Below are positions 41,152 through 59,255 of a stretch of 64,000 nt of DNA, in pieces. Source of the stretch: Christensenellaceae bacterium (lineage in GTDB: Bacteria > Bacillota > Clostridia > Christensenellales > CAG-138); the NCBI GenBank assembly GCA_031261085.1, contig JAISKB010000013.1, forward strand, positions 23,723-87,722, given 5' to 3'. The position numbers and the translations under genes were made by a program. How positions within the stretch are numbered: position 1 is the stretch's first letter; every line of letters starts with the position of its first letter. Under the pieces are notes generated by a model. The model searched no databases and was not told where the DNA came from. It saw only the letters and a program-made list of their open reading frames with translations.

Positions 41152-42615
41152 TCATTCCCCGGCTTTTTCGGCGGCCGTGTCTTCTTTTGCCGCTTTTTTC
41201 GCGCGGGGCTTCTTTTCTTTCGGCGCGGCCTCGGCCTCTGGCTCGGCCTTTGCCGCCTTCGCCTTCTTTGGCGCGGCCTCGGCTTCCGGCTCGGCCTTGG
41301 GCTTTGCCGCCTTCGCCTTCTTCGGCTTGGCCGCCGTCTCTACCGCGCTGTCCACCATAACGGCCAGCGTCTTATCCACCCGCACCTGGTCAGAAAAATA
41401 AAGCTTGTCGTCCTCGGTCAGGTTTTTGAGGAAGTCCTCGGTGCCGCCGCCAAACTGCTCGGCATACTCCGCAACCTTGGCCGATATTTCATCCTCGGCC
41501 GCCTCGATATTTTCGGCCTTGGATACCGCCTCGATCACCAGCTGGCTCTTCACGCGCGTCTTGGCGTCCTCCCGGCAATTATCCCGCAAGGTCTCCAGCG
41601 TGGCGCCGGTGTATTTAAAGTAATCCTCCAGCGAAATGCCCTGCATGCTCAAACGGTACCGCATATCCTGCAAAAGGGAATCGATCTGCCGCTCCACCAT
41701 CACCTCGGGCACTTCTACCTGCGCGTTTTCAACCACCTTGCGCACCACGGCGTTTTCCTTCTCGATTTGCGCGTCCTTTTTGGCCTGCTCCTCCAGCTCT
41801 TTGCGCTTGGCCGCACGAAGCTCCTCGAGCGTATCGAATTCGGAAACATCCTTGGCGAATTCGTCATCCAGCTCGGGCAGCTCTTTCACCTGTATGCCGT
41901 TCACCTTCACAGCGAACACGGCCTCTTTGCCGGCCAATTCCTCAGAATGATATTCCGCGGGGAAGGTGACGGTAAGCTCCTTTTGCTCCCCTATGGCCAA
42001 GCCTATCATCTGCTCTTCAAAGCCGGGTATAAAGCTGCCGCTGCCTATCACCAGCGTTTGCCCCTCGGCGGCGCCGCCCTTAAAAGGCACGCCCCCGACG
42101 CTGCCGCTGTAATCGAGGTTAACGGTATCGCCGTTCGCTACCGGGCGCTCCACATCCACCATGCGCGCCACGTTTTCGCGCTCGCGCGAGATGACAGCCT
42201 CCACGGCGTCATCCGTAACATTATACGCCTGCTTTTCTACTTCTATACCCTTATACTGCCCCAGCGTTACCTCGGGTTTTACCGTAACTTCGGCGCTGAA
42301 CACCAGCGATTTGCCCTCCGTCGGCAGCTCCACGATGGATACGTCCGCCCTATCTACCGGCTGTATGCCGCTTTCCTTTACGGCCGCGTCATAGGCCTCG
42401 GGGTATACGATGTCGAACGCATCATCAAAAAAAGCAAGCGGGCCATAGATGTTTTCGATTACCTTGCGCGGCGCCCTACCCTTGCGGAAACCGGGGACGT
42501 TGAAACGTTTGGCCGCCGTATAATATGCTTTTTGCACAGCCGTCTCAAATTGCTCCGCCGGCACCTCAATGGTGAGTTTGGCCTTGCTGCCCTCTAGCTT
42601 TTCCAAAGTTGCCAT
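41152..42615 (-). CDS. tig: Trigger factor with a C-terminal Lys/Ala/Glu/Pro-rich extension of about 55 aa
   Basis: N-terminus FRKGRAPRKV (ribosome-binding GFRxGxxP), a central FKBP-like domain, and the tail AKPKKAKAAKPKAEPEAEAAPKKAKAAKAEPEAEAAPKEKKPRAKKAAKEDTAAEKAGE. Confidence 0.93.
   Translation of the reverse strand: MATLEKLEGSKAKLTIEVPAEQFETAVQKAYYTAAKRFNVPGFRKGRAPRKVIENIYGPLAFFDDAFDIVYPEAYDAAVKESGIQPVDRADVSIVELPTEGKSLVFSAEVTVKPEVTLGQYKGIEVEKQAYNVTDDAVEAVISRERENVARMVDVERPVANGDTVNLDYSGSVGGVPFKGGAAEGQTLVIGSGSFIPGFEEQMIGLAIGEQKELTVTFPAEYHSEELAGKEAVFAVKVNGIQVKELPELDDEFAKDVSEFDTLEELRAAKRKELEEQAKKDAQIEKENAVVRKVVENAQVEVPEVMVERQIDSLLQDMRYRLSMQGISLEDYFKYTGATLETLRDNCREDAKTRVKSQLVIEAVSKAENIEAAEDEISAKVAEYAEQFGGGTEDFLKNLTEDDKLYFSDQVRVDKTLAVMVDSAVETAAKPKKAKAAKPKAEPEAEAAPKKAKAAKAEPEAEAAPKEKKPRAKKAAKEDTAAEKAGE
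41222..41323 (-). repeat. Tandem 48/54-bp coding repeat in the tig tail
   Basis: 41222-41269 and 41270-41323 both begin GGCGCGGCCTCGGC and end TTTGCCGCCTTCGCCTTCTT. They encode (K)KAKAAK(PK)AEPEAEAAP twice. Confidence 0.75.
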
Positions 42616-42852
42616 GTAAAACCTCCGAATGTTACCTTATTACTATATACGAAAATGCCGCCATTCGTTACCACATACGCGCATATCGCCATACGCAGTA
42701 TAGATTAGCACAGTTCCGCATGTTTTGCAATGAAAATCGCGTGTACTGCAGGTGTCAAATTGGTGAAAAAAGCTGAATTATCCCCGCCCTCGGTTCTCCC
42801 CCGCAGGAGAAATGCAAACGGGTTTATGTCCGACGGGGTGCGGGGGCCTATA

Positions 42853-42914
42853 CCCGCTTGCGGCGCAGCCGCAAAAAAATTCCCCTTCCCCGGGGAAGGG
42901 GTTAGGGGATGGGG
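42853..42914 (-). repeat. GC-rich intergenic repeat, module X (locus C), inverted relative to locus A
   Basis: 58 of 62 positions match the reverse complement of 17378-17439. It contains the perfect palindrome CCCCTTCCCCGGGGAAGGGG. Confidence 0.8.
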
Positions 42915-42962
42915 AACAAATTTTTTGACCCCCGCAGGGGGTTAGGAGGTAGGGCCATGCCC

Positions 42963-43757
42963 TTACCTCGCATATAACAAATACACCAGCGCGTTCACAA
43001 CGCGCACCGGCAGCAGCTTTATGAGCACAGCCAAGCATTTATACCAAAAGCCAATCGCGTACAGCGGCTTGACGCGGCGCTTGCACGCAATGCCCGCTAT
43101 GTATTTACCCGCGGCCTCCGGCCGCATGCCGTTCGCCTCATCCTTTTCCATGCCCGCGACCGACCGCGCGATGCGCCCGTTATAAATATCATCCCCGGCG
43201 GCGGACTTTTCGCGCGCGGCGGTAAAGCCGGTGCGTATATCCCCGGGCATGATCGCGCAGACCGTGATGCCGAATGGCCGCACCTCGTTGGCCAGCGCCA
43301 GCGTATAGGCGTTGATGGCGGCCTTGGCGGCGGAATAATAGGTTTGGAAGGGTATGGCGGCGGGCCCGGCCATCGAGCTGATGTTCACGATGCGGCCCGC
43401 GCCCGCTTGGCGCATCAGGGGCAATATGGCCTTGTTCACATGAACCATGCCAAAAAAGTCCACCTCAAACAGGCGCTTCGCCTCCTCGGCCGCGGTAAAC
43501 TCCACCGCGCCGGATATGCCGAACCCCGCGTTGTTGATGACGATATCCACCCGCCCCTGCTCCCGCAGTATCCGCTCTATGGCGGCCTGCACCTCATCGG
43601 GCTTGGTAACATCGGCGGATATATGGCAAACGCCCTTAGCGCCGCTGCCCGCATGGCGGCTCAGCTCATATACGATACAGCCCGCCGCGCAGAGCGCCTG
43701 CGCCGTACACAGCCCTATGCCGGAGCTGCCCCCCGTAACGACGGCCACCTTTGGCAT
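42963..43757 (-). CDS. Short-chain dehydrogenase/reductase with a hydrophobic C-terminal tail
   Basis: VTGGSSGIG, NNAG and the YYSAAK catalytic Y-x-x-x-K. The C-terminus LYAIGFWYKCLAVLIKLLPVRVVNALVYLLY is amphipathic/hydrophobic. Confidence 0.85.
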   Translation of the reverse strand: MPKVAVVTGGSSGIGLCTAQALCAAGCIVYELSRHAGSGAKGVCHISADVTKPDEVQAAIERILREQGRVDIVINNAGFGISGAVEFTAAEEAKRLFEVDFFGMVHVNKAILPLMRQAGAGRIVNISSMAGPAAIPFQTYYSAAKAAINAYTLALANEVRPFGITVCAIMPGDIRTGFTAAREKSAAGDDIYNGRIARSVAGMEKDEANGMRPEAAGKYIAGIACKRRVKPLYAIGFWYKCLAVLIKLLPVRVVNALVYLLYAR

Positions 43758-43759
43758 AC

Positions 43760-44932
43760 TCAGGCCCCCAGCATCGCGCCGGCAATGCTATCCATAGCTT
43801 CATCGAGCAGCGCCTCGGTATGGCTGGCCATATAGCTGGTGCGCAGCAGGCACTCGCCCTCCGGCGTGGCCGGCGGGAGCACCGGGTTTACATATACTCC
43901 CGCGTCGTAAATGGCGCGCGCCTTTTCGAGCGTGTTCATGATTTCATAGGTGTAAATCGGCACGATGGGCGTTTGCGAAGCCCGCGCCTTAATCCCCCGC
44001 GCAGCCAAGCCCTGCCGCGCATAGGTCGAAAGCGCGTCAAGGCGCGCCACCAGCTCGGGATGCTTTTTTAAGTATCGCAGCGCCGCCAGCGCACAAGCGC
44101 AGCTGGCCGGCGTAATGGACGCCGAAAATATAAACGGGCGGGAATTGACACGCACATAATCCGCCACATCGGCGCTGGCCGCCATGTAGCCGCCCAAGCT
44201 CGCAAGGGATTTGCTGAACGTGCCCATATACACATCCACATCCTTCTCCAAGCCAAAGTGGCTTGCCGTGCCCCGGCCGCCTTCGCCCAGCACGCCCAGC
44301 CCATGCGCGTCATCCACCATAACGCGGGCGCCATATTGCTTGGCCAGCCGCACGATTTGGGGCAGGTCGGCTATATCGCCGCCCATGCTAAACACGCCGT
44401 CCGTCACGATAAGGCAGCCCGCAGTGGCGGGCACGCTCTGCAATATCTTTTCGAGATCCTCCATATCGTTGTGCCGGTAGCGCAGCATTTTGCCATAGCT
44501 CAGCCTGCACCCGTCGTAGATGCTGGCATGGTTTTCACGGTCGCACACCACATAATCGCCCAAGCCCACCAGCGCGCTCACAATGCCCAGGTTGGATTGG
44601 AACCCGGTGGAAAACGTGACCACCGCTTCTTTGCGCAAAAACGCGGCCAGCTCGCTTTCCAGCTCCAGGTGCAGCTCCAGCGTGCCGTTTAAAAACCGGG
44701 AGCCGGAGCAGCCCGAGCCATAGCGCTCCACCGCCTTCACGCCGGCCTCCATCACCTCGGGGTTTACCGTAAGCCCAAGGTAATTGTTGGAGCCCAGCAT
44801 GATGCGGCGCTTGCCCTCCATCGTCACCTCGGCATCCTGACGGGACTCCAGCGCGTGAAAATATGGGTTGATCCCCTTTGCCTGCGCCTCCCGCGCAAAG
44901 GAAGGCCGCGTTACCTTTTCAAAAATATCCAT
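43760..44932 (-). CDS. PLP-dependent alpha-oxoamine synthase, serine-palmitoyltransferase-like
   Basis: GSNNYLGL, GSGCSGSRFLNGT, HASIYDGC, RYRHND, DDAHGLG, GTFSKS (PLP lysine) and YVNPVLPPATPEGECLLRTS. As I recall them, these resemble SPT more than BioF or KBL. Confidence 0.8.
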   Translation of the reverse strand: MDIFEKVTRPSFAREAQAKGINPYFHALESRQDAEVTMEGKRRIMLGSNNYLGLTVNPEVMEAGVKAVERYGSGCSGSRFLNGTLELHLELESELAAFLRKEAVVTFSTGFQSNLGIVSALVGLGDYVVCDRENHASIYDGCRLSYGKMLRYRHNDMEDLEKILQSVPATAGCLIVTDGVFSMGGDIADLPQIVRLAKQYGARVMVDDAHGLGVLGEGGRGTASHFGLEKDVDVYMGTFSKSLASLGGYMAASADVADYVRVNSRPFIFSASITPASCACALAALRYLKKHPELVARLDALSTYARQGLAARGIKARASQTPIVPIYTYEIMNTLEKARAIYDAGVYVNPVLPPATPEGECLLRTSYMASHTEALLDEAMDSIAGAMLGA

Positions 44933-44964
44933 CTTATTGCCTCTCCATTAAATCAATTGTCCTA

Positions 44965-46695
44965 TCAGGCGGTTATGGCCTCGCCGCCCGCAGCGCCCCG
45001 GCGCTGTTCCTCCTCTTCGAGCTGGCGATACGCCACCTTGCCCACCAGCGTTTTGGGGAACTGCTCGCGGAATTCGATATCGCAGGGCATCGCATATTTT
45101 GCGATGTGCTTGCGGCAATACGCCATAAGCTGCCGCTTGTTCTCGGCATCCGCCCGCACGCCGGGCTTGAGCATAACAAACGCCTTCACCTTTTGCATCT
45201 TCACAGGGTCCGGCACGCCAATCACGCAGCTCATCTGCACCAGCTCGTTCGCATCCAATATGTTTTCGAGCTGCGAAGGATATACGTTATAGCCGCTGGT
45301 GATGATCAGGCGCTTGATGCGCTGGCGAAAATATACGAAGCCATCGTCATCCATGGCGCCCAAATCCCCGGTATGCACCCAGGTATAGCCATCGGCATGC
45401 GTTTGCAGTACCTGCGCCGTTTCTTCGGGGTGGTTTAGGTACCCCAGCATTACCGTAGGCCCGGCGAGGCAAATTTCCCCCTGCTCGCCATACGGCAATT
45501 CTTCTTGCGTGCCGGGCCGCACGATTTTATAGAAGGTATCCGGGAAGGGCTGGCCTATGCTGCCCTCCTTCGCCAGGTGCAGCGGCGTAAGGCAGCTGGC
45601 CGTCACGCATTCGGTGGTGCCATAGCCCTCGCGTATCCGCACATCGGCATGGTGCTCCGCCAAAAAGGCGTCCACCCGCTTTTTCAGCTCCACCGAAAGG
45701 CTGTCGCCGCCGCTGAACACGCCCTTGAGCGAGGAGAGGTTCACCCCCTGCATAACGGGCTGGCGCAGCAGCGCTTCGTATAGCGTGGGCACCCCCGCGA
45801 TGAAGTTGCACTTATATTTTTTGATGAGCTTTGCATAGCTTTCGGGTGTAAAGCGCGGCACCAGTATGCAGCGCCCGCCCTTTGAAAGCATGGTGTGGAT
45901 GCATACCCCCAGGCCAAAGCCGTGGAACATGGGCATGACCGCCAGCATGGTATCGCCCGCGCAAAACACGGGGTTGGTGGCTATAACCTGGCAGCTGAGC
46001 GCGTTGAAATTAAGATTGGAAAGTAAAATGCCTTTTGTTACGCCCGTTGTGCCGCCGCTGTATAGTATCACCGCAGGATCCTGCGCCTGCTTGTTGGCGC
46101 GGTGCTTCCAGTGATATTGCTTGCCTCTGTGCATAAATTCCGCCCACCGTATAACCGGCGCGTCCTGCGGGATCTTTTGTATTTTCCACCCCTCCACCAG
46201 CATATACCCCGCCTTTATGGTAGGGGAAAGCGCATCTTTAATGCTGGCGATAATCACCTGATTCAGCTCCACATTTTGCCGTATTGCTTCGAATTTATAG
46301 TAAAACTGATCCAGCGTGATGGCAACAACGCTGCCGGATTCCTGAATGAAAAACTCAATCTCCTTTTCGCTGGAAAGCGGGTGTACCATATTGGCAATCG
46401 CGCCCACCAGGTTGACCGCATAAAACATGATGACGGTTTGCGGGCAGTTGGGCATGCAGATGGTTATTTTATCGTTTTCGCGTATGCCGATGGCCTTTAG
46501 CGCGCGGGCGCACAGCTCCACCTGCTGCACCAGCCTTGCATAGGTCGTATGCTGCCCCATAAAATCATACGCGATATAATTGGGGTATTGTTTTGCAACG
46601 CCCTCCACCATATCCCACATGGAGCCGCTTTCATACGTTAGCGTTTGCGGCACGCTGCCATAGTTATTGAGCCATGGCGCCCTCACAGTTTGCAT
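44965..46695 (-). CDS. AMP-forming acyl-CoA synthetase (long-chain fatty-acid-CoA ligase-like)
   Basis: YSGGTTGVTKG (AMP-binding motif), EGYGTTE, TGDLG and a trailing K. The ATG at 46695 lies 8 nt after GGAAGGAGGAA. Confidence 0.85.
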   Translation of the reverse strand: MQTVRAPWLNNYGSVPQTLTYESGSMWDMVEGVAKQYPNYIAYDFMGQHTTYARLVQQVELCARALKAIGIRENDKITICMPNCPQTVIMFYAVNLVGAIANMVHPLSSEKEIEFFIQESGSVVAITLDQFYYKFEAIRQNVELNQVIIASIKDALSPTIKAGYMLVEGWKIQKIPQDAPVIRWAEFMHRGKQYHWKHRANKQAQDPAVILYSGGTTGVTKGILLSNLNFNALSCQVIATNPVFCAGDTMLAVMPMFHGFGLGVCIHTMLSKGGRCILVPRFTPESYAKLIKKYKCNFIAGVPTLYEALLRQPVMQGVNLSSLKGVFSGGDSLSVELKKRVDAFLAEHHADVRIREGYGTTECVTASCLTPLHLAKEGSIGQPFPDTFYKIVRPGTQEELPYGEQGEICLAGPTVMLGYLNHPEETAQVLQTHADGYTWVHTGDLGAMDDDGFVYFRQRIKRLIITSGYNVYPSQLENILDANELVQMSCVIGVPDPVKMQKVKAFVMLKPGVRADAENKRQLMAYCRKHIAKYAMPCDIEFREQFPKTLVGKVAYRQLEEEEQRRGAAGGEAITA

Positions 46696-46733
46696 GAATT
46701 CAATTCCTCCTTCCGCTCTCTTTGCAGCGGTCT

Positions 46734-47615
46734 TCATTCTACCGGCGCGCCCATGGGCAGGTCCAGCAGCTCGGGCTGTTCAAACAGCCTGCGCAGCAGC
46801 TTGATGCTGTTGGCAAAATACATGCCGTCCGCAATGCGCTCATCGATGGTCATGCCCAGCTCCAGCGCCTCGCGCACCTCGCAGCTGCCATCCGCCTGAT
46901 AAAAGGGCGTGGGCTTCTTTTCGCCCACCAGCACAAAGCACGAATTGGTGCCCCAGTCGGCCAAATGGTGGTAGTTGGCATGCATCTTGATGGACCCCAG
47001 GTTGGAAAGGAACACCGACGAAAAGTATGGGTCGTCATACATGAGCATGTCGGGGTACATCCCGTGGTAATCCAACCACCGCAGCAGCGACGTCGCAAGG
47101 CGCAGCAGCGGGCGCGGCAGCTTCACGAGCATATCCATCTTATCGGTCGTGCCATCCATCTCGTTGTTTTTGCGCACGGAATAGACGATTTTTTTCACCT
47201 TTTCATATATCTGCTCGATGGGCGGCTGGTCGCCTTCCTGATCCATCGTGATAATCGCCACACCCTCTTCGCTATCATCGACAAAGCGCTTTTTCACCAT
47301 GAACGAAAGCACGATGTCCTTGCGCTGATACAGCCTTTGCCCCGCGTAAAAACGGTTCATCTTGGGCCGCAGCAGGCAGGTTTTTGCGATGGCCGCGCAG
47401 ATTACATGAAAAATCGTGTATTTAAACTCGGGGTTTTCAGCGTTCTTCTTCGCGATGTATTGGTTCACGGCGGTCAAATCCACCACCTCGCTCATCACGG
47501 CCTCGTTATCCGCACGGCTTGGCGCCAAAAACGGGAACAGCACATGCATCGCATCCACATCCCGCACCCAATACCCATCCTTACGGTCGCCCCGGCGTTT
47601 TTTTGCCTTTTCCAT
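46734..47615 (-). CDS. Acyltransferase with a 2-oxoacid dehydrogenase E2 / chloramphenicol-acetyltransferase-like catalytic fold
   Basis: 293 aa. NYHHLADWG resembles the H-x-x-x-DG active-site motif. The overall layout resembles the PF00198 catalytic domain without lipoyl or E3-binding domains. The ATG at 47615 lies 7 nt after GAGGAG. Confidence 0.65.
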   Translation of the reverse strand: MEKAKKRRGDRKDGYWVRDVDAMHVLFPFLAPSRADNEAVMSEVVDLTAVNQYIAKKNAENPEFKYTIFHVICAAIAKTCLLRPKMNRFYAGQRLYQRKDIVLSFMVKKRFVDDSEEGVAIITMDQEGDQPPIEQIYEKVKKIVYSVRKNNEMDGTTDKMDMLVKLPRPLLRLATSLLRWLDYHGMYPDMLMYDDPYFSSVFLSNLGSIKMHANYHHLADWGTNSCFVLVGEKKPTPFYQADGSCEVREALELGMTIDERIADGMYFANSIKLLRRLFEQPELLDLPMGAPVE

Positions 47616-47619
47616 ACCC

Positions 47620-48321
47620 TTACTCCTCATCGATTTGTTTGTTTTTATTCTTGCTTTGGCGGTATGCTACGGTTGTAGCGATGAGCCGTTTGGCCAAATC
47701 GCACAGCAGCAGCAATACGACGAACATCCCTATCCACACCGCGATGTTGATGCGAAATTCCACGCTCAGCCACAGCTTGCTCTGCAGGGCATCCATGGTA
47801 ATGAATGTGAGCATGCACCCTACAAGATAGGCGGTAAGCACGATGCGCTGCGGCTTATAGGTGGCCCGCCGCACATAAAAGCGGCCCAGCACCAGCGCTA
47901 CCGCCACCACGGTGTATTTAATAAGGAAAGCGACCGGCGCCGCCAGCACCAGCCCGGCGTGGCTCGACCTATCCATATTGAGGAACAATTCGAGCGCATA
48001 GAGCACCGGCACGATGCACAGCCCGCACCAAAGCACGCTCCGCATGATTTCCAGCAGCTGCTCGCCCCAAGTCTGCCGGGGGCTGTTGGCGACCAAATCC
48101 CGGCAGAAGGCCCCAAAATCCATCCCCACCACTTCGGAAAACGGCTGCCCGCGCTGCTCGCTCTCCTGCGCCATGCCCACCAGGTCCGAAATCGTTTCCT
48201 CATATACGATCTCGTTGAGGTGGCGCGTGGCCAAGTAGGCCGCCATGTTGCGCAATGTTTTCCTGTTCGTTGCGGATAGCCTTCGTATCGCTTGCCTAAG
48301 CTCCTTACGCATCCTCGTCAC
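47620..48321 (-). CDS. PadR-associated membrane protein (DUF1129-like)
   Basis: An N-terminal helical soluble part is followed by 4-5 TM helices. It overlaps the 3' end of the PadR gene. Confidence 0.6.
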   Translation of the reverse strand: MTRMRKELRQAIRRLSATNRKTLRNMAAYLATRHLNEIVYEETISDLVGMAQESEQRGQPFSEVVGMDFGAFCRDLVANSPRQTWGEQLLEIMRSVLWCGLCIVPVLYALELFLNMDRSSHAGLVLAAPVAFLIKYTVVAVALVLGRFYVRRATYKPQRIVLTAYLVGCMLTFITMDALQSKLWLSVEFRINIAVWIGMFVVLLLLCDLAKRLIATTVAYRQSKNKNKQIDEE

Positions 48322-48643
48322 CTACCCTTTTTTCAAGCCTGTTCACCGCGCCGCTCAAATTCCACCAGTATTGTTGAAAGGACTCCAAATCAGCCCGCCC
48401 CACAGGCGTTATGGTGAAATACTTGCGTTTGGGGCCCAACGGCGAAGGCTGAAGCTGCGCGGTGATGCTCCCCTGCTTTTCCAAGCGCAGCAACAGAGGG
48501 TATATCGTACCCTCCGCAATATCGTCGAACCCATTGGTCTTTAGATATTCCAGTATTTCGTAGCCATAGGTTGTTTTTTTGCTGATGATTTTTAAGATGC
48601 AGCCCTCGAGCGTGCCCCGCATCAGCTGTGATTTGTCAAACAC
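48305..48643 (-). CDS. PadR-family transcriptional regulator
   Basis: GTLEGCILKIISKKTTYGYEILEYLKTNGFDDIAEGTIYPLLLRLEKQG...KRKYFTIT. A GTG at 48643 lies 5 nt after GAGGG. The track ORF starts at TTG 48658. Confidence 0.85.
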   Translation of the reverse strand: MFDKSQLMRGTLEGCILKIISKKTTYGYEILEYLKTNGFDDIAEGTIYPLLLRLEKQGSITAQLQPSPLGPKRKYFTITPVGRADLESFQQYWWNLSGAVNRLEKRVGDEDA

Positions 48644-48685
48644 GCATACCCTCGCCAACTACTTTGTTCTACACAGTACTGGTAT

Positions 48686-48714
48686 ATTGTACCGCCATGT
48701 AGCGCTCGTGTCAA
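48686..48714 (-). promoter_or_regulatory. Near-consensus promoter of the PadR-headed operon
   Basis: On the minus strand: TTGACA (48714-48709), a 17-nt spacer, TACAAT (48691-48686). CTACA...TGTAG inverted arms flank the -10. Confidence 0.65.
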
Positions 48715-48856
48715 TATTGGGGAGAAATAATAGAATTTAGGGGAAAAAAAGGGAAAAGGGGGAGAAATGTGTTTGTCGAACGCGATGAGCGCTTCTAAAA
48801 TTCACGATTCAAACAGCAGACAATCTCCAACGCATAGGCGACTAAATAAACCATAC

Positions 48857-48904
48857 TAACAAATAAGCGGCGAAACAAAAAACTGTTTCGCCGCTTATTT
48901 GTTA
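48857..48904. terminator. Perfect 21-bp stem hairpin downstream of the DUF3825-like gene
   Basis: TAACAAATAAGCGGCGAAACA, a 5-6-nt A-rich loop, then TGTTTCGCCGCTTATTTGTTA. No clear U-tract on either side. Confidence 0.5.
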
Positions 48905-49005
48905 GTAAAAACAAAATCAGTAAATTAAAAAAAACATCTGTAATCAGTAGTAAAGCTACTGTACCTATAGTATATGCAGCTGAATTCCAAAAGTCAACTG
49001 AAATA

Positions 49006-49746
49006 TTATGGCTTTAACCAAGCACTATCTGGCCGCGCAATTAATCGAGCGTTATTATATGCCATATCTAAAGTCAAGCATGTATGCCCCAAATATTGGT
49101 TGCCTGCACTATTTTTGCTAACCACTAACGCTAAATCAGGGGCATTTTCGCTAATCAAAGAAACAGGAATTAATAGTTGAATGCGCCCCTTATAATATTG
49201 GGGAACAGCCGTTTTATAATTTGCATCAATCATGCACTTAGCTCTTTTTATTGCTCCGTCAAATAGCATTGTCCTATTCGGACTTTCTCTTATGGATTCA
49301 GGAATGCGCAAAAAGTTTTCAGCTTCATTAAATATGTGTGGATATTGAGGAATAATATCACAATTTGTATCGAAAACCAGTGCGGAAGGATCGGAAAAAT
49401 AGTTCGCTCTTTTGGGAAACTCGCTAATCCCCATGATTGCCATCTGATAGGAAGTGTAAAACCCGTCCAAAAACCACTTCTGTCTATCTTGTATTTTATT
49501 TAATGCAAAATATGCGTAGATGCTTTCATAAAACAGCGTATATAGGCCAGTATTTAACAAACAAAATGTATCCGTACACAAAAGTTGATTCTCTTCGGCA
49601 ACCTTTGCAAAAGTATATTCAATATAGTTTTTTAATATTGTATTGTCAGAATTTGTTCCAAAGCTCCATTTTTCTGGACACAGCTTAGATAATGCAGAAA
49701 TCTTTCTTTCATATTCTGCACAGTATGCAAAGTCAAACAATCGCAT
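49006..49746 (-). CDS. DUF3825-like protein of unknown function
   Basis: 246 aa. KWSFGTNSDNTILKNYIEYTFAKV, LLNTGLYTLFYESIYAYF and AVPQYYKGRIQLLIPVSL...GHTCLTLDMAYNNARLIARPDSAWL match my recollection of DUF3825. A sampled line is about 32% GC. Confidence 0.55.
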   Translation of the reverse strand: MRLFDFAYCAEYERKISALSKLCPEKWSFGTNSDNTILKNYIEYTFAKVAEENQLLCTDTFCLLNTGLYTLFYESIYAYFALNKIQDRQKWFLDGFYTSYQMAIMGISEFPKRANYFSDPSALVFDTNCDIIPQYPHIFNEAENFLRIPESIRESPNRTMLFDGAIKRAKCMIDANYKTAVPQYYKGRIQLLIPVSLISENAPDLALVVSKNSAGNQYLGHTCLTLDMAYNNARLIARPDSAWLKP

Positions 49747-49934
49747 AATATCTACTCCTCTATAAAAAACTTTAAATAATTATATCATAGATGCTCATAA
49801 TTCCCCAGCAAATCATAATTTACAAAGGCATCGTATTCACGATGCCACCGCTGTTCTTCGCCTGGAAGTTAACCAGAGTAAATGATATGCCCGGACTTTT
49901 TATCAGCAGGCTGCCCTATTAATATAAAACTCAA

Positions 49935-49985
49935 AGCGGCCGATAAGGGTTTGAATCCCTACCAACCGCTCGTGATTCTTTGCGC
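49935..49985 (-). terminator. Intrinsic terminator of the permease gene
   Basis: On the minus strand, the imperfect stem GAGCGGTTGGTAGGG-ATTCAAA-CCCTTATCGGCCGCT is followed by TTGAGTTTTATATT. Confidence 0.5.
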
Positions 49986-50029
49986 CTCACCCACCAATAC
50001 CTTAGCAAAGCGCTATTGCAGCATTTCTA

Positions 50030-51958: not shown

Positions 51959-52402
51959 TTATTCCTCCACGGTCACCGTGCCATCCGGCGCCACACGCAC
52001 CGTCATGCCGGTTTGCACGGCGGCCAAAAATTCATCGCCCAGGTTATCCACCGTGGGCATGGGATGCGCGCTCCACACCCCGGCCAATATGGCGCCCGCC
52101 GCCGCCAACGAATCGATGGGCTTGGCAAACAGCAGGCACGCGGGCTGGCGCTCCATCTCCGCCGCGCAAAACAGCACCATGCCGCCCGTCGTGCTGCCGA
52201 TGGTTTGCGGCAGGCACAGCGCCTTGCCGCACATGGGCTTGCCATATATATCCGGGTTGTTTTGGTCGGAACAGGCGGCCTTTTTATCGCCGAACATCAG
52301 CGCCTTTTGGAAGCTGGCCAAGGTATTGAACCCGCCATGGGATACCAGCGCCTCTGCTTTTGCCGTGCCGGGCACCACGGCCCGCCCTTTAAAGGTTTTC
52401 AT
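51959..52402 (-). CDS. Aconitase X swivel-domain subunit (DUF126)
   Basis: MKTFKGRAVVPGTAKAEALVS...GKALCLPQTIGSTTGG. It sits directly downstream of the DUF521 gene. Confidence 0.8.
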   Translation of the reverse strand: MKTFKGRAVVPGTAKAEALVSHGGFNTLASFQKALMFGDKKAACSDQNNPDIYGKPMCGKALCLPQTIGSTTGGMVLFCAAEMERQPACLLFAKPIDSLAAAGAILAGVWSAHPMPTVDNLGDEFLAAVQTGMTVRVAPDGTVTVEE

Positions 52403-52403
52403 A

Positions 52404-53681
52404 TCAGTTTTCCCCCTTTGCAAGCAGTTGCAGTATCTCGGCATCGGTATGGTAGCGCGCGCTGGTATAGGTGCGCAGCTTGTTGCTGCTGGTAATCACC
52501 GGCATTTTGCCGCACAGGGGGTTGTTCATATACATCAGCGGGCAAATGCTGCTAACCACCACCCCCGCCGCGCGCAGGGCTTCGGCCTGCGGCGTTTGGG
52601 CAAACTTTTCGGCCACCTTGGGCGCCGCTGTAAACACCGTGGGGATGGCCACCTTTTTGCGCCCGTTTTGGGCGAGCGCCTCGGTCAGCTTCTGTGTCCA
52701 GTCATTCAGCTGGCGCTCGGATAGATGCGGGCAGCCCACAAAGCACAGCTTGGGCGCGGCGTTTGCGTCCTTCCAAATGACGGGATAACCGGCTTTCACG
52801 CGCGCAAGCTCCGCGTCGTCGATGCGGTACACCTTCGCATCCGGCCGCAGCAGCGCTTCGCCCTGCCGAACCGCCTCCGGCGTAAGGTTTTCGATATGAT
52901 ATAGGCCCACCGCACCATTGCTGGCCGTGGCGGCGCCCATATCCTTTAGGTAATCGCGGGCATCCTGGTTCAGCTCTGTGCCCAGCCAGGTATCCAGGCC
53001 GCGAATATAGGGCACATCCTCCATCACCTTCATGCCGATGGCGCTGCCCAGCACCTGCGCCTCGGGCTTTTGGGTGGTGGCTACCTCCACAATCCACGAG
53101 GCCTTGCGCCCCTCGTCCGTCAGCAGGCCAAAGTAGGGCACATAGCCCACGATGCTGCCAAACAGCTCGATGATGCCGGAATTGCGGTTGCACCGCGCGC
53201 CCAGCACGCTGTTGGCATACACCACGGCGCTGCTCTCGGCCCAGCTGAGCACATCACCCTCCCGCGGCTTGTTGCCCACCTCATCCATATAGCAGGTGCA
53301 GGTGAAGGCGCTTTCATCCAGCAGGCCCAGCTTGTTGAGCTGCGCTTCATAGCTCGCTTGTTTGGAATACATCACCTTGAAAAACACATTCTGCAGCAGG
53401 TTGGAGGGGACATTTTGATCCAGCGGGCGCGGATCCACACTGAACGGCTGCCGCGAAAGCGCGCCGCCCTCTATCAGCGTATCCATCAGCGCGTATACCG
53501 GCTTCATCACGCCCAGCCCAAAGCTGGTAACCAAATGCCCGTTTGCGCCGGTAACCGGCACCATCTTTTGCGCGCCAAAGGTTTCGCCATACATCACCAG
53601 AGTGCGCATAACCTTGGCCTGCACCTCGCCCTTTTCCCCGGCCAAAATGGCCTGCTGCTCGGCTGTTAAAGCTATCGCCAT
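52404..53681 (-). CDS. Aconitase X catalytic subunit (DUF521)
   Basis: LTAEQQAILAGEKGEVQAKVMRTLVMYGETFGAQKMVPVTGANGHLV and FVGCPHLS. Confidence 0.85.
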   Translation of the reverse strand: MAIALTAEQQAILAGEKGEVQAKVMRTLVMYGETFGAQKMVPVTGANGHLVTSFGLGVMKPVYALMDTLIEGGALSRQPFSVDPRPLDQNVPSNLLQNVFFKVMYSKQASYEAQLNKLGLLDESAFTCTCYMDEVGNKPREGDVLSWAESSAVVYANSVLGARCNRNSGIIELFGSIVGYVPYFGLLTDEGRKASWIVEVATTQKPEAQVLGSAIGMKVMEDVPYIRGLDTWLGTELNQDARDYLKDMGAATASNGAVGLYHIENLTPEAVRQGEALLRPDAKVYRIDDAELARVKAGYPVIWKDANAAPKLCFVGCPHLSERQLNDWTQKLTEALAQNGRKKVAIPTVFTAAPKVAEKFAQTPQAEALRAAGVVVSSICPLMYMNNPLCGKMPVITSSNKLRTYTSARYHTDAEILQLLAKGEN

Positions 53682-53693
53682 CGTTCTCCCTCC

Positions 53694-55973
53694 TTATATG
53701 CTGGTGCCAAGGCGATACGCCGCGCGCACGGCCTCCTGCACCTTGCCCGGCGCAAAGCTGTCGCCAATGTTGTATAGCTCCGCCGCCGCCTGCGTGCGCT
53801 GCGCTTCAAAAAACAGCGCGTCATCCGCCCGGCCGCCTGCCGCAAACACCACCAAGTCCGCCTCCAGCGTTTCATCCTGATATGCCTGCCCCAGCTTGGG
53901 CGCGAGCGGGTTTTCGATATTCTCCGGCAAAATGGGCGCCCAGGTATTGTAAGGATTTGGCACATTTTTGTGATGATTGCGGGAAACCGTTACCTTGCCC
54001 GCGCCAAAGCCGGATACCTTTGTGCAGTTCATCAGCCGCACGCCGGCGCCTTTGAGCGCGTGGATGAGATGCCCGCGGTTTGCCGTGCAGGTGCCCTCCA
54101 TGAACTGCGGCAGCATTTCCACCACCGTTACGCTGCGGTGGTGTTCGCAGGCCAGCCATTGCGCCGCCTCGCAGCCCACCACGCCGCCGCCCACCACCAC
54201 GATGTTCTGCGCGGCGCCTATGCGCTCCGGCTGCAGGAACAGGTCGGTGGCCTGCACGGTGGCGATTTGCTCCACGCCCGGCAGCTTTAAATCCACCTGG
54301 CGGGTGCCCACGGCGAATATGATGGCATCATACCCCTGCGCGGCCAAACCCGCTGCCGACACCTCTGTGCCCGGATGGAACTTCAGGTTGCCGCCTTGCT
54401 GCGCCTGCTCCACCTCACGCTCCAAATACAAACGGTAGTTTTCGATATCGAACTTGATTTTGGGCACGCCGCCCGGCACGATGCGCCCGCCGATCTTCTC
54501 CGTTTTTTCGTATAGATCCACCTTGTGGCCGCGCGCCGCGGCGCTCACGGCCGCCACCACGCCGCCGGGGCCCGCCCCCACCACCGCCACGCGCTTTGGC
54601 TTTTCGGCCGCGGCGGGCGCTTGTGGCAGCACATGCTCAAACGCGGTGCGCGGGTTTACGGCGCACTGTGGGTGCCCGCCTTCCACAAATTCGTTCAGGC
54701 AGCCCTCCTGGCAGCCGATGCACGGGCGGATGCTTTGCACCTTGCCGGCATAGGCCTTATTGGGCCACTCCGGGTCCGCCAGCAGCGGGCGGCCCAGCAT
54801 CACCATATCGCAAGCGCCGTCGCGCAGCGCCTGCTCCGCAATATCCGGGTACCCCAGCTTACCCACTGCCACCACGGGCACGGGCACCCCCGCGTTGGAG
54901 CGTATCCCCTTTTGTGCAAAGTGTTCTTTGACCAGCTTTGCCACGGGTACAAAGCACCCCGCCGGCATGCTGGAGGGCGGATGCGGCAGCCACCAGTTGT
55001 CGTAGCAGCCCAAATCCACATCGAACATATCCACGCCGGCCTTCACCAGCTCCTCCATATAGGCCAGCGTCATATCCACCGTGCGGCCATGCTTAAACTT
55101 CTTGAGGAAGGTGCCGTTCAGCACGCTTTCATCATAGGTTTCTTCCAGCGCAAGGGAAAGGTCTATGCGGTACATAATAGGGTAATGCGGCCCCACGCGC
55201 TTGCGTATTTCGCGTATCAAATCCACGCCAAAGCGCTGCCAATCGGCATAGCGGCCTATTTTGCGGCGGTTGAATGCCGGGTTCGTCATCTGCTCGAGCA
55301 AATAGCCCTCATGCCCATGCAAATATACGCCGTCCAGGCCCATGGCATGGCTATCCGCCGCCGCCTGCCCGGTGTTTTTGACGATTTTTTGCAGCTTCGC
55401 GCCCGAAAGCCGCACGCACGGGATGGCGCTGATGTAGAAGTTGGGGTTGAACGAGGCGGACACCGGCAGCTTTGCCTGCGTCAGCATGCACTGCGGGTTG
55501 CCCACGCGGCCCAGGCCCGGCGTGAGCTGCACGAAGATTTTGCTGCCGAAGGCGTGCACGCCCTGCGCCAAATCGCGCCACCCGCACAGCACCGTGCGGC
55601 TGCGGTCTATCCGAGGGAAGTAGCTTAGGCGCCCCAGCTCCGTGATGGAGGGATCCACCCCAAAGCTGGTGGGGATAAGCCCCGTGGTCAGCAGGCCCGC
55701 GCCGCCCTTTGCCCGCGCAAAAAAGTAGTGGAGCATCTTATCGTTGGGGCGACCGGTTTCCTCGCACATGTCGATATTGCCCATGGGCGCCATCACGATT
55801 CTGTTTTTTAGCGTGGTTTTGTTCACCTGAATGGGGGAAAACATCGTTTCATACGGATACAACGCATCTGTCATCTTTCCTGCGGCGCCTGCCCTGTTTT
55901 GCGCGGGCCCGCTTTGCTTTGGCCAAGCATCAAACTCATTTACCAGCTTTTGCACAACGCCATCTTTGCCCAT
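53694..55973 (-). CDS. 2-enoate reductase / 2,4-dienoyl-CoA reductase family flavoenzyme (OYE FMN domain, 4Fe-4S, FAD/NAD(P) domain)
   Basis: LKNRIVMAPMG, HGHEGYLLEQ, RPCIGCQEGC and VAVVGAGPGG. The ATG at 55973 lies 8 nt after AAGGAG. Confidence 0.85.
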   Translation of the reverse strand: MGKDGVVQKLVNEFDAWPKQSGPAQNRAGAAGKMTDALYPYETMFSPIQVNKTTLKNRIVMAPMGNIDMCEETGRPNDKMLHYFFARAKGGAGLLTTGLIPTSFGVDPSITELGRLSYFPRIDRSRTVLCGWRDLAQGVHAFGSKIFVQLTPGLGRVGNPQCMLTQAKLPVSASFNPNFYISAIPCVRLSGAKLQKIVKNTGQAAADSHAMGLDGVYLHGHEGYLLEQMTNPAFNRRKIGRYADWQRFGVDLIREIRKRVGPHYPIMYRIDLSLALEETYDESVLNGTFLKKFKHGRTVDMTLAYMEELVKAGVDMFDVDLGCYDNWWLPHPPSSMPAGCFVPVAKLVKEHFAQKGIRSNAGVPVPVVAVGKLGYPDIAEQALRDGACDMVMLGRPLLADPEWPNKAYAGKVQSIRPCIGCQEGCLNEFVEGGHPQCAVNPRTAFEHVLPQAPAAAEKPKRVAVVGAGPGGVVAAVSAAARGHKVDLYEKTEKIGGRIVPGGVPKIKFDIENYRLYLEREVEQAQQGGNLKFHPGTEVSAAGLAAQGYDAIIFAVGTRQVDLKLPGVEQIATVQATDLFLQPERIGAAQNIVVVGGGVVGCEAAQWLACEHHRSVTVVEMLPQFMEGTCTANRGHLIHALKGAGVRLMNCTKVSGFGAGKVTVSRNHHKNVPNPYNTWAPILPENIENPLAPKLGQAYQDETLEADLVVFAAGGRADDALFFEAQRTQAAAELYNIGDSFAPGKVQEAVRAAYRLGTSI

Positions 55974-56109
55974 AGTTCCATCTCCTTTACGCGTGCGCCA
56001 CATGCCTGTGCCGCACTGCTTACGGCGGGGCTTGGCGTGCACGCTGTTATTGAATTTATTGATTCAAGTATATCATATTGCTAAAAAATTGTCACACTGC
56101 TTGTGCGGG

Positions 56110-56801: not shown

Positions 56802-57707
56802 CTATACGATTCCTATAATTTCTGCAATATTTAAAAGCCCCTGCTCGAGGCAATAGCGTTCCAACCCATCGATGATTGTCAGCATGGCGTCCGGCTGCGC
56901 GAACGTAATCGTACCGACCTGAATCGCGCTGGCCCCCGCCATAAAAAAGCTCAACGCATCGTTCACCGTCGCAATGCCGCCCAGCCCCACCACCGGGATC
57001 CGCACCGCATGCGCCACCTGATGCACCATCCGAAGCGCAATCGGCATAATGGCGGGGCCGGAAAGGCCCGCATAAACATTTTCGAACACCGCTTTTTTAC
57101 CCGCCACATCGATTGCAAGCCCCAGGAACGAGTTGACCAGGCTCACGCCATCCGCGCCGGCCCCTTCGGCGGCCTGCGCAACCGCCACGATGTTTTCGGC
57201 ATTCGGCGACAGCTTCACCAGCAGGGGATGTTTTGTAACCGCCTTCACCTTTTTCACAATCGCTTCCGTGCTCTTGGGCAGCACGCCAAACGCCATGCCG
57301 CCCGCCTTTACATTGGGGCAGGAGATATTCAGCTCTAAAATATCGATGTCCGCCTCGTTCAAAAGCTCCGCGCCGGCTATATAATCCGCTTCGCTGTGGC
57401 CGCCAAGGTTTGCGAGCACCGCACAACCGGCCGCCCGCATATAGGGGCATTCCTCTTTTATAAAGCGGCGCACACCCGGGTTTTCGAGGCCGATGCTGTT
57501 CATGAGGCCGGCAGGGGTTTCCCACACGCGCATGCCGTCGTTGCCGCTGCTGCCATGGAGCGTAAGCCCCTTCCCACTGATGCCGCCCAGGCGGGAGATG
57601 TCAAACCGCTCCGCATATTCATGGCCAAACCCAAACGTACCCGAAGCCGCGATAACCGGGTTGTTCATCGTAACGCCCAAAAGCGTGGTTGTAAGCGCAC
57701 TACTCAT
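56802..57707 (-). CDS. pyrD: Dihydroorotate dehydrogenase B catalytic subunit
   Basis: NPVIAASGTFGFG, NSIGLENPG, LNISCPNV and GGI. Start taken at MSSALTT. Confidence 0.9.
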   Translation of the reverse strand: MSSALTTTLLGVTMNNPVIAASGTFGFGHEYAERFDISRLGGISGKGLTLHGSSGNDGMRVWETPAGLMNSIGLENPGVRRFIKEECPYMRAAGCAVLANLGGHSEADYIAGAELLNEADIDILELNISCPNVKAGGMAFGVLPKSTEAIVKKVKAVTKHPLLVKLSPNAENIVAVAQAAEGAGADGVSLVNSFLGLAIDVAGKKAVFENVYAGLSGPAIMPIALRMVHQVAHAVRIPVVGLGGIATVNDALSFFMAGASAIQVGTITFAQPDAMLTIIDGLERYCLEQGLLNIAEIIGIV

Positions 57708-58407
57708 AAAAAACTTCTTCCGCCGGGAATACCGGGCCGTCTTTGCACGCGCGCTTGTTTCCCGACGCTGTTTTTTGCGTACACCCCAGGCACGCGCCCG
57801 CGCCGCACGCCATACGATTTTCCAGCGATACAAACGCCTTGCGTTCCCGCTCCTTGGCGCATTGCGCGATCACGCGCATCATGTTCGTAGGGCCGCAAGC
57901 ATAAAATATGTCATCCACGCTATAGTCGATATCATCGGTTATGGCCCCGCCAATCTTCACGCGCACCTCATCCGCCACCGCGGCATACGGTTTTTCTAAT
58001 ATTACAGCCTCTTTAAAACCAAGGTAAATTCTAATGCGGCGGTGCGGGTATAACGCCCTATGCTCCTTCGCCAAAAGGTAGAGCGGCGCGATGCCGATTC
58101 CCCCGCCAATTAAGGTGATATCCGAATCGAGCAGGGGGAACCCGTTCCCATACGGGCCCTCAACCTCGAGCTCTCGCAGGGCTTGCATTTCCTTAATCAT
58201 CGCCGTGACGCGGCCCACGCTCCGCATGAGCAGCCGCGTTACATCGCCCTCCACATCAAACAGGGTAATGGGGCGCCCCAGCAGCGGATCCAGCGTGCCG
58301 GGGATTCGCACCATCACGAATTGCCCCGCATGCCCCGCCGTTACGCCGCGCAGCGTCACCAGGTGGCATTGCGCGCCAACCTCTTGGTTTTCGAGTATTA
58401 CAGCCAT
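57700..58407 (-). CDS. pyrK: Dihydroorotate dehydrogenase electron-transfer subunit
   Basis: FAD/NAD-binding fold and the C-terminal 2Fe-2S motif MACGAGACLGC. Confidence 0.9.
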   Translation of the reverse strand: MAVILENQEVGAQCHLVTLRGVTAGHAGQFVMVRIPGTLDPLLGRPITLFDVEGDVTRLLMRSVGRVTAMIKEMQALRELEVEGPYGNGFPLLDSDITLIGGGIGIAPLYLLAKEHRALYPHRRIRIYLGFKEAVILEKPYAAVADEVRVKIGGAITDDIDYSVDDIFYACGPTNMMRVIAQCAKERERKAFVSLENRMACGAGACLGCTQKTASGNKRACKDGPVFPAEEVFYE

Positions 58408-59255
58408 TGCAAAATATCCTTCTTCATCCTAATAACGGCTTCGTTTACAAACAAATCGAAATCCTCCCCTTCGCTTTTACCCTTGTGCGCGGTAATCAGC
58501 CCGCGTGAGGAGTTGACGACGCCGCACAGCTTATCTTTAAAAATACCGGCGATGTCGCGGCCCGTTCCGCCCTGCGCGCCATAGCCCGGGATTAGGAAAA
58601 ACGTATGGGGCATCAGCTCTTTTATGATTTTAAACTCCCCCGGATAGGTTAAGCCCACGACCGCGCCCAAGGCGCTGTACCCGCTCTTCCCAATGAACGC
58701 TTCACCCCAGCCGGATAGCTTGGCCGCCATTTCCTGATAGAGCGTGCGCGTATGATCCAATACCGGCAGATCCTGAAAATCCCCACTGCTCGGGTTGGAG
58801 GTTTTAACGAGCACAAACATGCCCTTGCCCCGCTCGAGATATTCATAATAAGGCGAAATCGCATCCTCGCCCATATAGGCGTTTGCGGTAATGATATCCG
58901 TTTCAAAATCGCCGGTAAAGTGCCCTTGCGCGTATTGCTTTGCGGTGGAGGCAATATCGCCGCGCTTCACATCGGATATTGCGACCGCGCCGCTTTGGCG
59001 GATGCAGCGGAGCGTCTTCGCAAAGCAGGCCATACCATCCAGCCCCAGCGCCTCGTAGCAGGCGACCTGCACCTTATAACACCCGGCATTTTCTAACGTG
59101 GCGTCGATGATTTTGCGGTTGAATTCAAATATCTTTTCCCCCGCGCTCCAGTCCTTCGCTTGTAAATACGAGGGCAGAAAGTCATATTGGGTATCCAGGC
59201 CCACACACACCGGGCCTTTGGTTAACACATCCTGCGCGAGGCGCTCCATACTCAT
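58398..59255 (-). CDS. pyrF: Orotidine 5'-phosphate decarboxylase (long type)
   Basis: VCVGLD, DVKRGDI and PGYGAQGG. Confidence 0.9.
   Translation of the reverse strand: MSMERLAQDVLTKGPVCVGLDTQYDFLPSYLQAKDWSAGEKIFEFNRKIIDATLENAGCYKVQVACYEALGLDGMACFAKTLRCIRQSGAVAISDVKRGDIASTAKQYAQGHFTGDFETDIITANAYMGEDAISPYYEYLERGKGMFVLVKTSNPSSGDFQDLPVLDHTRTLYQEMAAKLSGWGEAFIGKSGYSALGAVVGLTYPGEFKIIKELMPHTFFLIPGYGAQGGTGRDIAGIFKDKLCGVVNSSRGLITAHKGKSEGEDFDLFVNEAVIRMKKDILQWL

Follow-up and report, generated by a model that had tools for sequence, protein, structure and literature searches.

In Bacteroidetes, dihydroceramides are made by a serine palmitoyltransferase (SPT; Spt) and the 3-ketosphinganine reductase KdsR (BT_0972), followed by N-acylation (PMC9278070, PMC10865984), and the ceramide genes of the Caulobacter type encode Spt, a dedicated acyl carrier protein (ACP), an acyl-CoA/ACP synthetase, the GNAT-type ceramide synthase bCerS and the reductase CerR (PMC11087976, PMC9386255). 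In Clostridia, a fatty-acid-amide pathway (the OaaC system) comprises a stand-alone condensation domain of the nonribosomal peptide synthetase (NRPS) type, an adenylating enzyme and a carrier protein (PMC13310621). The sphingolipids of gut bacteria, which enter the host metabolism and shape immunity, have been attributed almost entirely to Bacteroidetes (PMC10865984, PMC9278070), and a preprint of 2025 on lipid tracing in the gut found SPT in no species other than B. thetaiotaomicron and E. coli, so that annotated SPT genes left its labelled sphingolipids unexplained (bioRxiv 10.1101/2025.09.11.675017). Here, we analyse a stretch of 64 kb (the window) of the contig JAISKB010000013.1, from a metagenome-assembled genome (MAG) labelled Christensenellaceae bacterium, which carries a six-gene operon encoding, in that order, a PadR-family regulator, a membrane protein, an E2-like protein (E2L), an AMP-forming fatty-acid ligase, an SPT-like synthase and a short-chain dehydrogenase/reductase (SDR). 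A full-text search of the literature returned no report of SPT or sphingolipid synthesis in Clostridia, nor of the E2-like family, and annotation pipelines give such proteins of Clostridia no more specific name than aminotransferase, BioF or "E2 subunit".

We propose, with a probability of about 0.45, that this PadR-controlled operon joins two independently conserved two-gene lipid modules, one for the synthesis of a long-chain base and the other for its N-acylation. From the anatomy of the genes, the homologies of their products, the active-site residues and the gene-context statistics presented below, we infer the enzymatic activities, substrates, step order and regulation as follows. The synthase would condense L-serine with a long-chain acyl thioester to yield 3-ketodihydrosphingosine, which the SDR would reduce to a sphinganine-type long-chain base. 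The ligase would activate a free (second) fatty acid, and E2L would transfer the acyl group to a nucleophile, in this operon most likely the long-chain base through its amino group, to give a dihydroceramide-like N-acyl amino-alcohol. Such a pathway would share with the Bacteroidetes route the implied order of reduction followed by N-acylation, and would differ from it by its Gram-positive Clostridial host and by the absence from the operon of a GNAT-type ceramide synthase. A preliminary description of this DNA had already read the four enzymes as a complete ceramide-like logic. Its long-chain-base part is upheld by the scores and the adjacency of the synthase and the SDR, which quite probably make such a base, judging from their sequences. 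The N-acylation step continues to rest on gene context, and we hold it as a tentative assignment, with a little less than an even chance.

The preliminary description had placed the synthase closer to bacterial SPTs than to BioF or KBL, on the basis of motifs that we all recovered in the translation, and the following lines of evidence bear this out. First, among the NCBIfam models the synthase scores 507 bits with SPT of the CFB type, 396 with SPT-BetaP, 378 with BioF, 367 with KBL and 247 with ALAS; three of its relatives rank the models alike, with 494-517 bits for the SPT model. Second, its PDB matches are led by the SPT of Sphingobacterium multivorum (SmSPT; 415 bits), ahead of the Sphingomonas SPTs (about 300), KBL (about 245) and the cysteate acyltransferases (CFAT; 221-229). 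Third, it aligns with SmSPT without gaps over 380 residues (49.5% identity), and 20 of 22 SmSPT residues that contact pyridoxal phosphate or L-serine, or that form the hydrophobic core of the acyl site (list from PMC10196870), are identical in it, the differences being M271I, a main-chain contact, and F338L. The identical residues include the catalytic set of the fold-type I alpha-oxoamine synthases, namely the PLP lysine, a stacking histidine, the Asp and His at N1 and O3' of the cofactor and a carboxylate-binding arginine, which are K241, H135, D207, H210 and R364 here (K244, H138, D210, H213 and R367 in SmSPT) and every L-serine contact (Asn52, Gly80, Ser81, His138, Ser243 and Lys244 in SmSPT numbering); the acyl-binding wall, Tyr27 and Phe83, is kept as well, with the hydrophobic-core residues that surround it. 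Fourth, a single residue, Lys281 in SulA and Ala in Spt, is reported to separate the sulfonolipid synthases from Spt (PMC9304779), and the synthase has the Spt-type alanine (Ala271) at this position. This discriminator and the PDB scores rule out a cysteate acyltransferase (sulfonolipid) identity, as the model scores and residues rule out BioF, KBL, ALAS and CqsA. In agreement with the preliminary description, neither bio genes nor a recognisable threonine dehydrogenase lie next to the synthase gene.

The SDR possesses the motifs of its family, TGGSSGIG (TGxxxGIG), NNAG and Y141-x3-K145 (YxxxK), and ends with a hydrophobic segment (residues 242-260). Its top NCBIfam model is KdsR (247 bits; the next family scores 203), which it matches over positions 3-267 of 267, that is to say including the tail, and KdsR is also the top model of the SDR partners in the two relatives tested. 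As KdsR is the best curated match, tail included, the earlier view of the SDR as a plausible 3-keto reductase with a membrane-type tail holds. It is gene context that couples the SDR to the SPT-like synthase: in 70 of the 75 related loci with room downstream, the synthase gene adjoins that of an orthologous SDR, and the two genes often overlap. The synthase, with the active-site residues of SmSPT, and the SDR, with KdsR as its best model, resemble the corresponding enzymes of the Bacteroidetes route; they differ from them by falling below the curated cutoffs and by the adjacency of their genes. The Bacteroides genes, BT_0870 and BT_0972, are presumably far apart.

E2L is predicted to adopt the fold of the E2 subunit of 2-oxoacid dehydrogenases. 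Its 293-residue form is identical to the database protein P0001, and its match to PF00198 is confined to the C-terminal part. Its AlphaFold2 model (mean pLDDT 78.9) was compared with the PDB using Foldseek, and the 50 best matches shown were all E2-core entries of 2-oxoacid dehydrogenases, including one E3BP model, with a probability of 1.0 and target-normalised TM scores of 0.6-0.75 against E2 cores. Similarly to the E2 catalytic cores (PF00198; PDB 3mae, 1eaa and 3l60), E2L has the SNLG motif with the oxyanion serine and the DxRxxDG scaffold. Unlike them, it has an invariant YHH in the loop that follows the likewise invariant SNLGS, a helical insertion of about 45 residues and a single domain, with neither a lipoyl nor a subunit-binding domain, and its conserved gene neighbour encodes an AMP-ligase, with no E1 or E3 genes. 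We take its SNLGS to match the E2p motif that carries the oxyanion-stabilising serine. Pfam found no GNAT domain in any of the six operon proteins, unlike the bCerS enzymes CCNA_01212 and BF9343_4218. The sole acyltransferase candidate is E2L, the fold of which makes it unrelated to the known GNAT-type bacterial ceramide synthase, as had been surmised.

The OaaC system is close to the operon by its logic only. In both cases the hosts are gut Clostridia, an AMP-ligase activates the fatty acid, sometimes on a small carrier, and a stand-alone enzyme of the chloramphenicol acetyltransferase (CAT) superfamily would couple the amine. The differences are that the coupling enzyme is here of the E2 type (PF00198, not PF00668), and that the amine would be made within the operon by the SPT-like enzyme. 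An assignment of E2L as an NRPS condensation domain of the Clostridial fatty-acid-amide type is rejected since the Pfam family is different (PMC13310621).

Two composite proteins were noticed in the E2L family. One of them, P0355 (773 amino acids, high-G+C and actinobacterial-looking), has the E2L domain fused to a wax-ester/diacylglycerol acyltransferase (WS/DGAT), and the other, P0268 (500 amino acids), has a GtrA-like transmembrane domain fused to it. Both fusions would place the family in the context of membranes and lipid acyl transfer.

The ligase shares its start with its relatives (the same M..KAPWL), has the long-chain-fatty-acid--CoA ligases as its top NCBIfam models (394 bits, below their cutoffs) and matches PDB entries of the FACS/4CL type. 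To follow the partners of these enzymes across genomes, species-representative genomes were scanned with an E2L alignment; at least 589 genomes had a relative, and the best 80 loci were analysed. The E2L relatives occur in Clostridia, several Bacteroidales MAGs, Treponema and Sphaerochaetaceae. A ligase orthologue lies directly 3' of the E2L gene in 71 of these 80 species genomes, and no other neighbour is widely conserved. This pairing persists in loci that have no synthase close by, and the ligase may work for E2L instead of, or besides, the synthase.

The operon therefore joins three modules that are also found apart, namely PadR/membrane protein, E2L/ligase and synthase/SDR. A synthase gene lies near that of E2L in three of the 80 loci, L007, L011 and L019, the last of which has a looser E2L-ligase-synthase form with no adjacent SDR detected. 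Four loci (L007, L011, L013 and L018) have PadR and the membrane protein upstream of E2L, and seven have a spermidine-synthase-like gene after the ligase, as one would expect if the variable gene beside this pair provides a primary amine, which speaks for the N-acylation step. The gene order is PadR-membrane-E2L-ligase-synthase-SDR-ACP-second ligase in L007 and L011; the same arrangement, minus synthase and SDR, is found in L013 and L018, and the order E2L-ligase-synthase-SDR-ACP-PAP2_3 in L004-6. The second ligase of these extended relatives shows adenylation-domain or CAR-like matches. The presence of two ligases and an ACP points to two activation systems, which fits a lipid with two chains. 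The PAP2 protein of L004 had no sequence match to solved structures; its family, PAP2_3, presumably includes inositol-phosphoceramide synthases, which act on ceramide, and owing to this family link it supports a ceramide-type product. In a rough neighbour-joining tree, the synthase of the window and the remaining fused synthases belong to distinct major clades, which gives at least two lineages, so that the association of the modules arose or persisted in more than one of them.

These extended relatives allow a comparison with the Caulobacter ceramide genes. L007 and L011 match them role for role, since each cluster brings together a synthase, an acyltransferase, a reductase, an ACP and AMP-ligase(s), and this parallel with the five Caulobacter genes supports the N-acylation step. 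By contrast with the Caulobacter set, the acyltransferase has an E2 fold and not a GNAT fold, the reductase is KdsR-like and not CerR-like, the extended relatives have two ligases, the operon of the window is without ACP, and a single-membrane organism would have no periplasmic reduction step.

A second census, started from the synthase, gathered 84 loci, most of them from metagenomes of the human gut, in which a synthase closely related to that of the window (73-78% identity) is encoded; one member of the synthase cluster belongs to a MAG assigned to Angelakisella. Besides the SDR, no neighbour recurs except a MarR gene, in 12 loci; like the spermidine-synthase-like gene of the E2L loci, it is only a sporadic companion, and we retain no other conserved neighbour for either enzyme pair. 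L160, a metagenome contig at about twofold coverage with the order synthase-SDR-ligase, was down-weighted as an independent fusion. Its 99% identity to L164 stops at nucleotide 1976, close to where the synthase gene ends, and gives way to complete divergence, which probably marks a chimeric assembly.

Several observations weigh against the proposed pathway. As regards the enzymes of the base module, the synthase (507 bits) does not reach the equivalog cutoff of NF047600 (640), nor does the SDR (247 bits) reach that of KdsR (400); because of this shortfall we regard the synthase, on present comparisons, as an SPT-like enzyme outside the curated clades and not as a certified member. As regards E2L, its TIDERIADG aligns with the E2 motif DHRxxDG in HMM alignments, which puts a glutamate at the position of the catalytic histidine. 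This glutamate is invariant in 22 of 22 aligned E2L sequences, and a survey of 150 representatives of 506 clusters (E <= 1e-30), 121 of which bear the motif, counted DER in 109, D, N, Q or S in the remainder, and DHR in none. The YHH loop is modelled at a pLDDT below 50. As regards the gene context, 71 of the 80 genomes have E2L and the ligase without a synthase within 10 kb, and the synthase census has no E2L in any locus, including the 44 with at least 4 kb upstream. The modules being mostly unlinked, E2L must have a role for which no neighbouring long-chain-base module is required. The earlier expectation that the six-gene block is conserved as a unit thus fails, since it consists of three modules fused in three of 80 E2L genomes. 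Moreover, no ACP, second ligase or PAP2 gene was found in the window (tblastn for ACP and PAP2), in line with the earlier remark that an ACP gene is missing, a trait that is nevertheless specific to this genome, as the fused relatives carry both an ACP and a second AMP-ligase. Finally, all relatives are MAGs or metagenome contigs.

The loss of the histidine bears directly on what E2L may do. A true E2 subunit is excluded by the lack of the catalytic histidine, of a lipoyl domain and of E1 or E3 genes. Of the "E2/CAT-fold acyltransferase" previously announced, the fold stands, by Foldseek and PF00198, whereas an active site of the CAT/E2 type cannot be assumed. We read E2L as a predicted active but re-tooled acyltransferase, the site of which would combine the retained oxyanion serine of SNLGS, the glutamate in place of the histidine and the YHH of the adjacent loop. 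GNAT N-acyltransferases use a carboxylate base for amine acceptors, which the E2L glutamate may resemble.

The best-surviving alternative, although unlikely, is that the operon makes a long-chain base only, and that E2L is a thioester transacylase (for example from acyl-CoA to holo-ACP), akin to the exchange of E2 between CoA and dihydrolipoamide. E2L and the ligase would then supply the synthase, and lipid synthesis in general, with fatty acids that the cell scavenges, while N-acylation would be carried out by an unlinked enzyme or be absent. In its favour, a true E2 swaps acyl groups between two thiols and E2L keeps both the fold and the oxyanion serine; against it, the WS/DGAT fusion points to acyl transfer onto lipids and not onto a carrier protein. 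That E2L and the ligase are self-contained in 71 of 80 genomes, from Clostridia, Bacteroidales and spirochaetes, suits general fatty-acid handling. The ACP cuts both ways: its gene is sometimes adjacent, and Spt and SulA of bacteria favour acyl-ACP (PMC9304779, PMC9386255), but most E2L-ligase loci have no ACP nearby, and where there is one, the second ligase adjoining it could load it directly, making a transacylase redundant. The PAP2_3 gene of L004, lastly, speaks against this alternative, as it implies a ceramide-type acceptor.

It is distinctly unlikely that two unrelated functions are merely co-transcribed, with PadR, the membrane protein, E2L and the ligase forming a cassette against fatty-acid stress, which would detoxify free fatty acids by esterifying or amidating them onto a common acceptor, and with the synthase and the SDR present by chance or co-regulation. 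PadR and the membrane protein do accompany E2L and the ligase without a synthase in L013 and L018, the fusions are rare (3 of 80 E2L genomes and 0 of 44 synthase loci), and toxic compounds of a hydrophobic nature are what PadR regulators typically respond to. Yet the synthase and SDR genes of L007 and L011 are embedded between the ligase and the ACP-second ligase pair, and not appended to the cassette; the association recurs in separate synthase lineages; and in the window the spacings are 32 and 2 nucleotides, with no internal terminator of comparable strength.

A further possibility, which we consider improbable, is that the synthase uses glycine, alanine or cysteate, leading to a non-sphingoid amino-lipid, for example a 1-deoxy base or a compound that resembles capnine or a sulfonolipid. 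Specificity is hard to infer from sequence in this family, the score lies under the SPT equivalog cutoff, and SmSPT itself accepts alanine and glycine at low efficiency (PMC10196870). Against this, every L-serine contact of SmSPT is identical (PMC10196870), an alanine replaces the lysine of the cysteate acyltransferases (PMC9304779), and the CFAT structures score far less than SmSPT (221-229 versus 415 bits). As to ordinary metabolism, with the synthase as KBL or BioF and the SDR as threonine dehydrogenase or an unrelated reductase, it is highly improbable in spite of BioF/KBL matches at 367-378 bits and of relatives labelled "8-amino-7-oxononanoate synthase" in some source databases, because these scores are 130-140 bits under that of the SPT model and below their own cutoffs, Tyr27, Phe83 and the hydrophobic core are shared with SmSPT, no bio genes are nearby, the SDR is a 264-residue classical enzyme with a membrane-type tail and KdsR as its best match, and the operon partner is a long-chain fatty-acid ligase.

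Returning to the joint synthesis and N-acylation of a long-chain base, the predicted functions would amount to the making of sphingolipid-type molecules in a phylum from which this was not expected, with a candidate N-acyltransferase that is not homologous to those known. This suggests that Gram-positive gut bacteria, and not Bacteroides alone, may make sphingolipid-type lipids. If the synthase and the SDR make long-chain bases, a second large group of sphingolipid producers of the gut has been overlooked; if E2L N-acylates these bases, it represents a new fold of ceramide synthase and provides a function for a family that comprises at least 506 sequence clusters and has relatives in 589 or more species genomes. 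It is conceivable, although we are rather doubtful, that Gram-positive gut Clostridia, of Oscillospiraceae and Christensenellaceae lineages frequent in human gut metagenomes, make sphingoid bases with an unrecognised Spt-KdsR pair, and that the stand-alone E2L family, with its glutamate and its partner ligase, is a ceramide synthase of a third type with an evolutionary origin of its own, or else a more general lipid-amine N-acyltransferase.

The features of the operon are collected in the table.

Features of the six-gene operon and of its boundaries (window coordinates)
Feature	Position	Strand	Evidence or remark
PadR-family transcriptional regulator, 112 amino acids from a GTG start	48305..48643	-	Pfam PadR 2.1e-20
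PadR-associated membrane protein, 233 amino acids	47620..48321	-	four hydrophobic segments
E2-like protein (E2L), 293 amino acids, stand-alone 2-oxoacid-dehydrogenase-E2 fold, predicted acyltransferase	46734..47615	-	PF00198 1e-10
AMP-forming fatty-acid (acyl-CoA) ligase, 576 amino acids	44965..46695	-	Pfam AMP-binding 4.5e-80 and AMP-binding_C
Serine-palmitoyltransferase-like alpha-oxoamine synthase, 390 amino acids	43760..44932	-	Pfam Aminotran_1_2 (PF00155) 2.4e-55
Classical SDR, candidate 3-ketodihydrosphingosine reductase, 264 amino acids, hydrophobic C-terminal tail	42963..43757	-	adh_short 7.5e-47
Sigma-70-type promoter TTGACA-17-TACAAT	48686..48714	-	11/12 consensus positions, best site in 42400-49400
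Putative PadR operator, imperfect inverted repeat GCTACATGG ... ACAAAGTAGT bracketing the -10 box	48658..48703	-	multi-genome alignment
Intrinsic-terminator-like hairpin and T tract ending the operon	42873..42901 (hairpin 42901-42882)	-	CCCCTTCCCCGGGGAAGGGG then AATTTTTTTG
Strong terminator of the upstream DUF3825 gene, upstream operon boundary	48857..48904	-	20-bp stem, T-rich tail

The six genes lie on the minus strand in a single orientation, behind one strong promoter and with terminators on both sides, and the region scan revealed no internal terminator as strong as these. The open reading frames announced in the preliminary description were all retrieved at their positions, with domain calls that Pfam confirms, and its spacings of -17, 4, 38, 32 and 2 nucleotides are reproduced when the starts of the relatives, or of the database copies of the proteins, are used. 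The GTG start of PadR aligns with the ATG of its relatives and has the Shine-Dalgarno sequence GGCGAGGG; its open frame extends to 48658, a start that yields the -17 overlap. As for the near-consensus promoter, a scan for consensus sites would not be convincing by itself (9 sites found versus 6.8 expected by chance), but the predicted site is the top one of the region, and an alignment with the upstream regions of L007, L011, L013 and L018 shows no change in its -35 and -10 boxes, the flanks being kept too.

The PadR orthologues (66-73% identity) head the E2L/ligase module in the same four relatives, and the membrane protein (31-41% identity) comes after PadR in all of them. The latter has its hydrophobic segments at residues 96-114, 124-142, 160-178 and 191-209, and its N-terminal part resembles DUF1048 weakly (4e-4, short of the Pfam cutoff). 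PadR has a winged-helix domain, and five genomes share an imperfect palindrome across the -10 box, the arms having the consensus cACTACtTTGtg ... caCAtAGTAGT, with a GTAC..GGTAC core around this box. The arms of the window are degenerate, and a search of its promoter with a 6-nucleotide seed gave no exact inverted repeat, so that the palindrome shows only in the multi-genome alignment. It is a plausible candidate for the PadR operator, from which PadR probably represses the operon, and the membrane protein may have a part in sensing.

Directly upstream of the PadR operon of L011 (1812-6902) we noticed genes of fatty-acid synthesis, apparently fabF, accB, fabZ, accC, accD and accA, recognised from N-terminal sequences only. 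A variant of the E2L-ligase pair, observed in L001-3, L009, L010, L012, L015, L028, L031 and L041, is followed by the gene of a 292-residue protein with a partial spermidine/spermine-synthase domain and, in some of these loci, by that of a 555-residue protein with a C-terminal AXE1-type esterase domain. This variant could correspond to an N-acyl-polyamine pathway.

Around the operon, the stretch 48000-50000 has a low G+C content (0.43, as compared with about 0.58 around it) and contains, upstream of the operon, a DUF3825 gene (49006-49746, minus strand; Pfam 4e-68) with its own very strong terminator; this stretch may be an inserted element. On the other side of the operon, the trigger-factor gene (41152-42615, minus strand) encodes a 487-residue protein with a repeated Ala/Lys/Pro/Glu-rich C-terminal tail (…AAKPKKAKAAKPKAEPEAEAAPKKAKAAKAEPEAEAAPKEKKPRAKKAAK…), which is histone-H1-like and not typical for Tig. 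Further away (51959-56042, minus strand), both subunits of aconitase X (AcnX), the small and the large one, are encoded next to a 782-residue fusion of an Old Yellow Enzyme domain and a pyridine-nucleotide-disulphide oxidoreductase domain, and this region is followed by pyrD, pyrK and pyrF (56802-59255).

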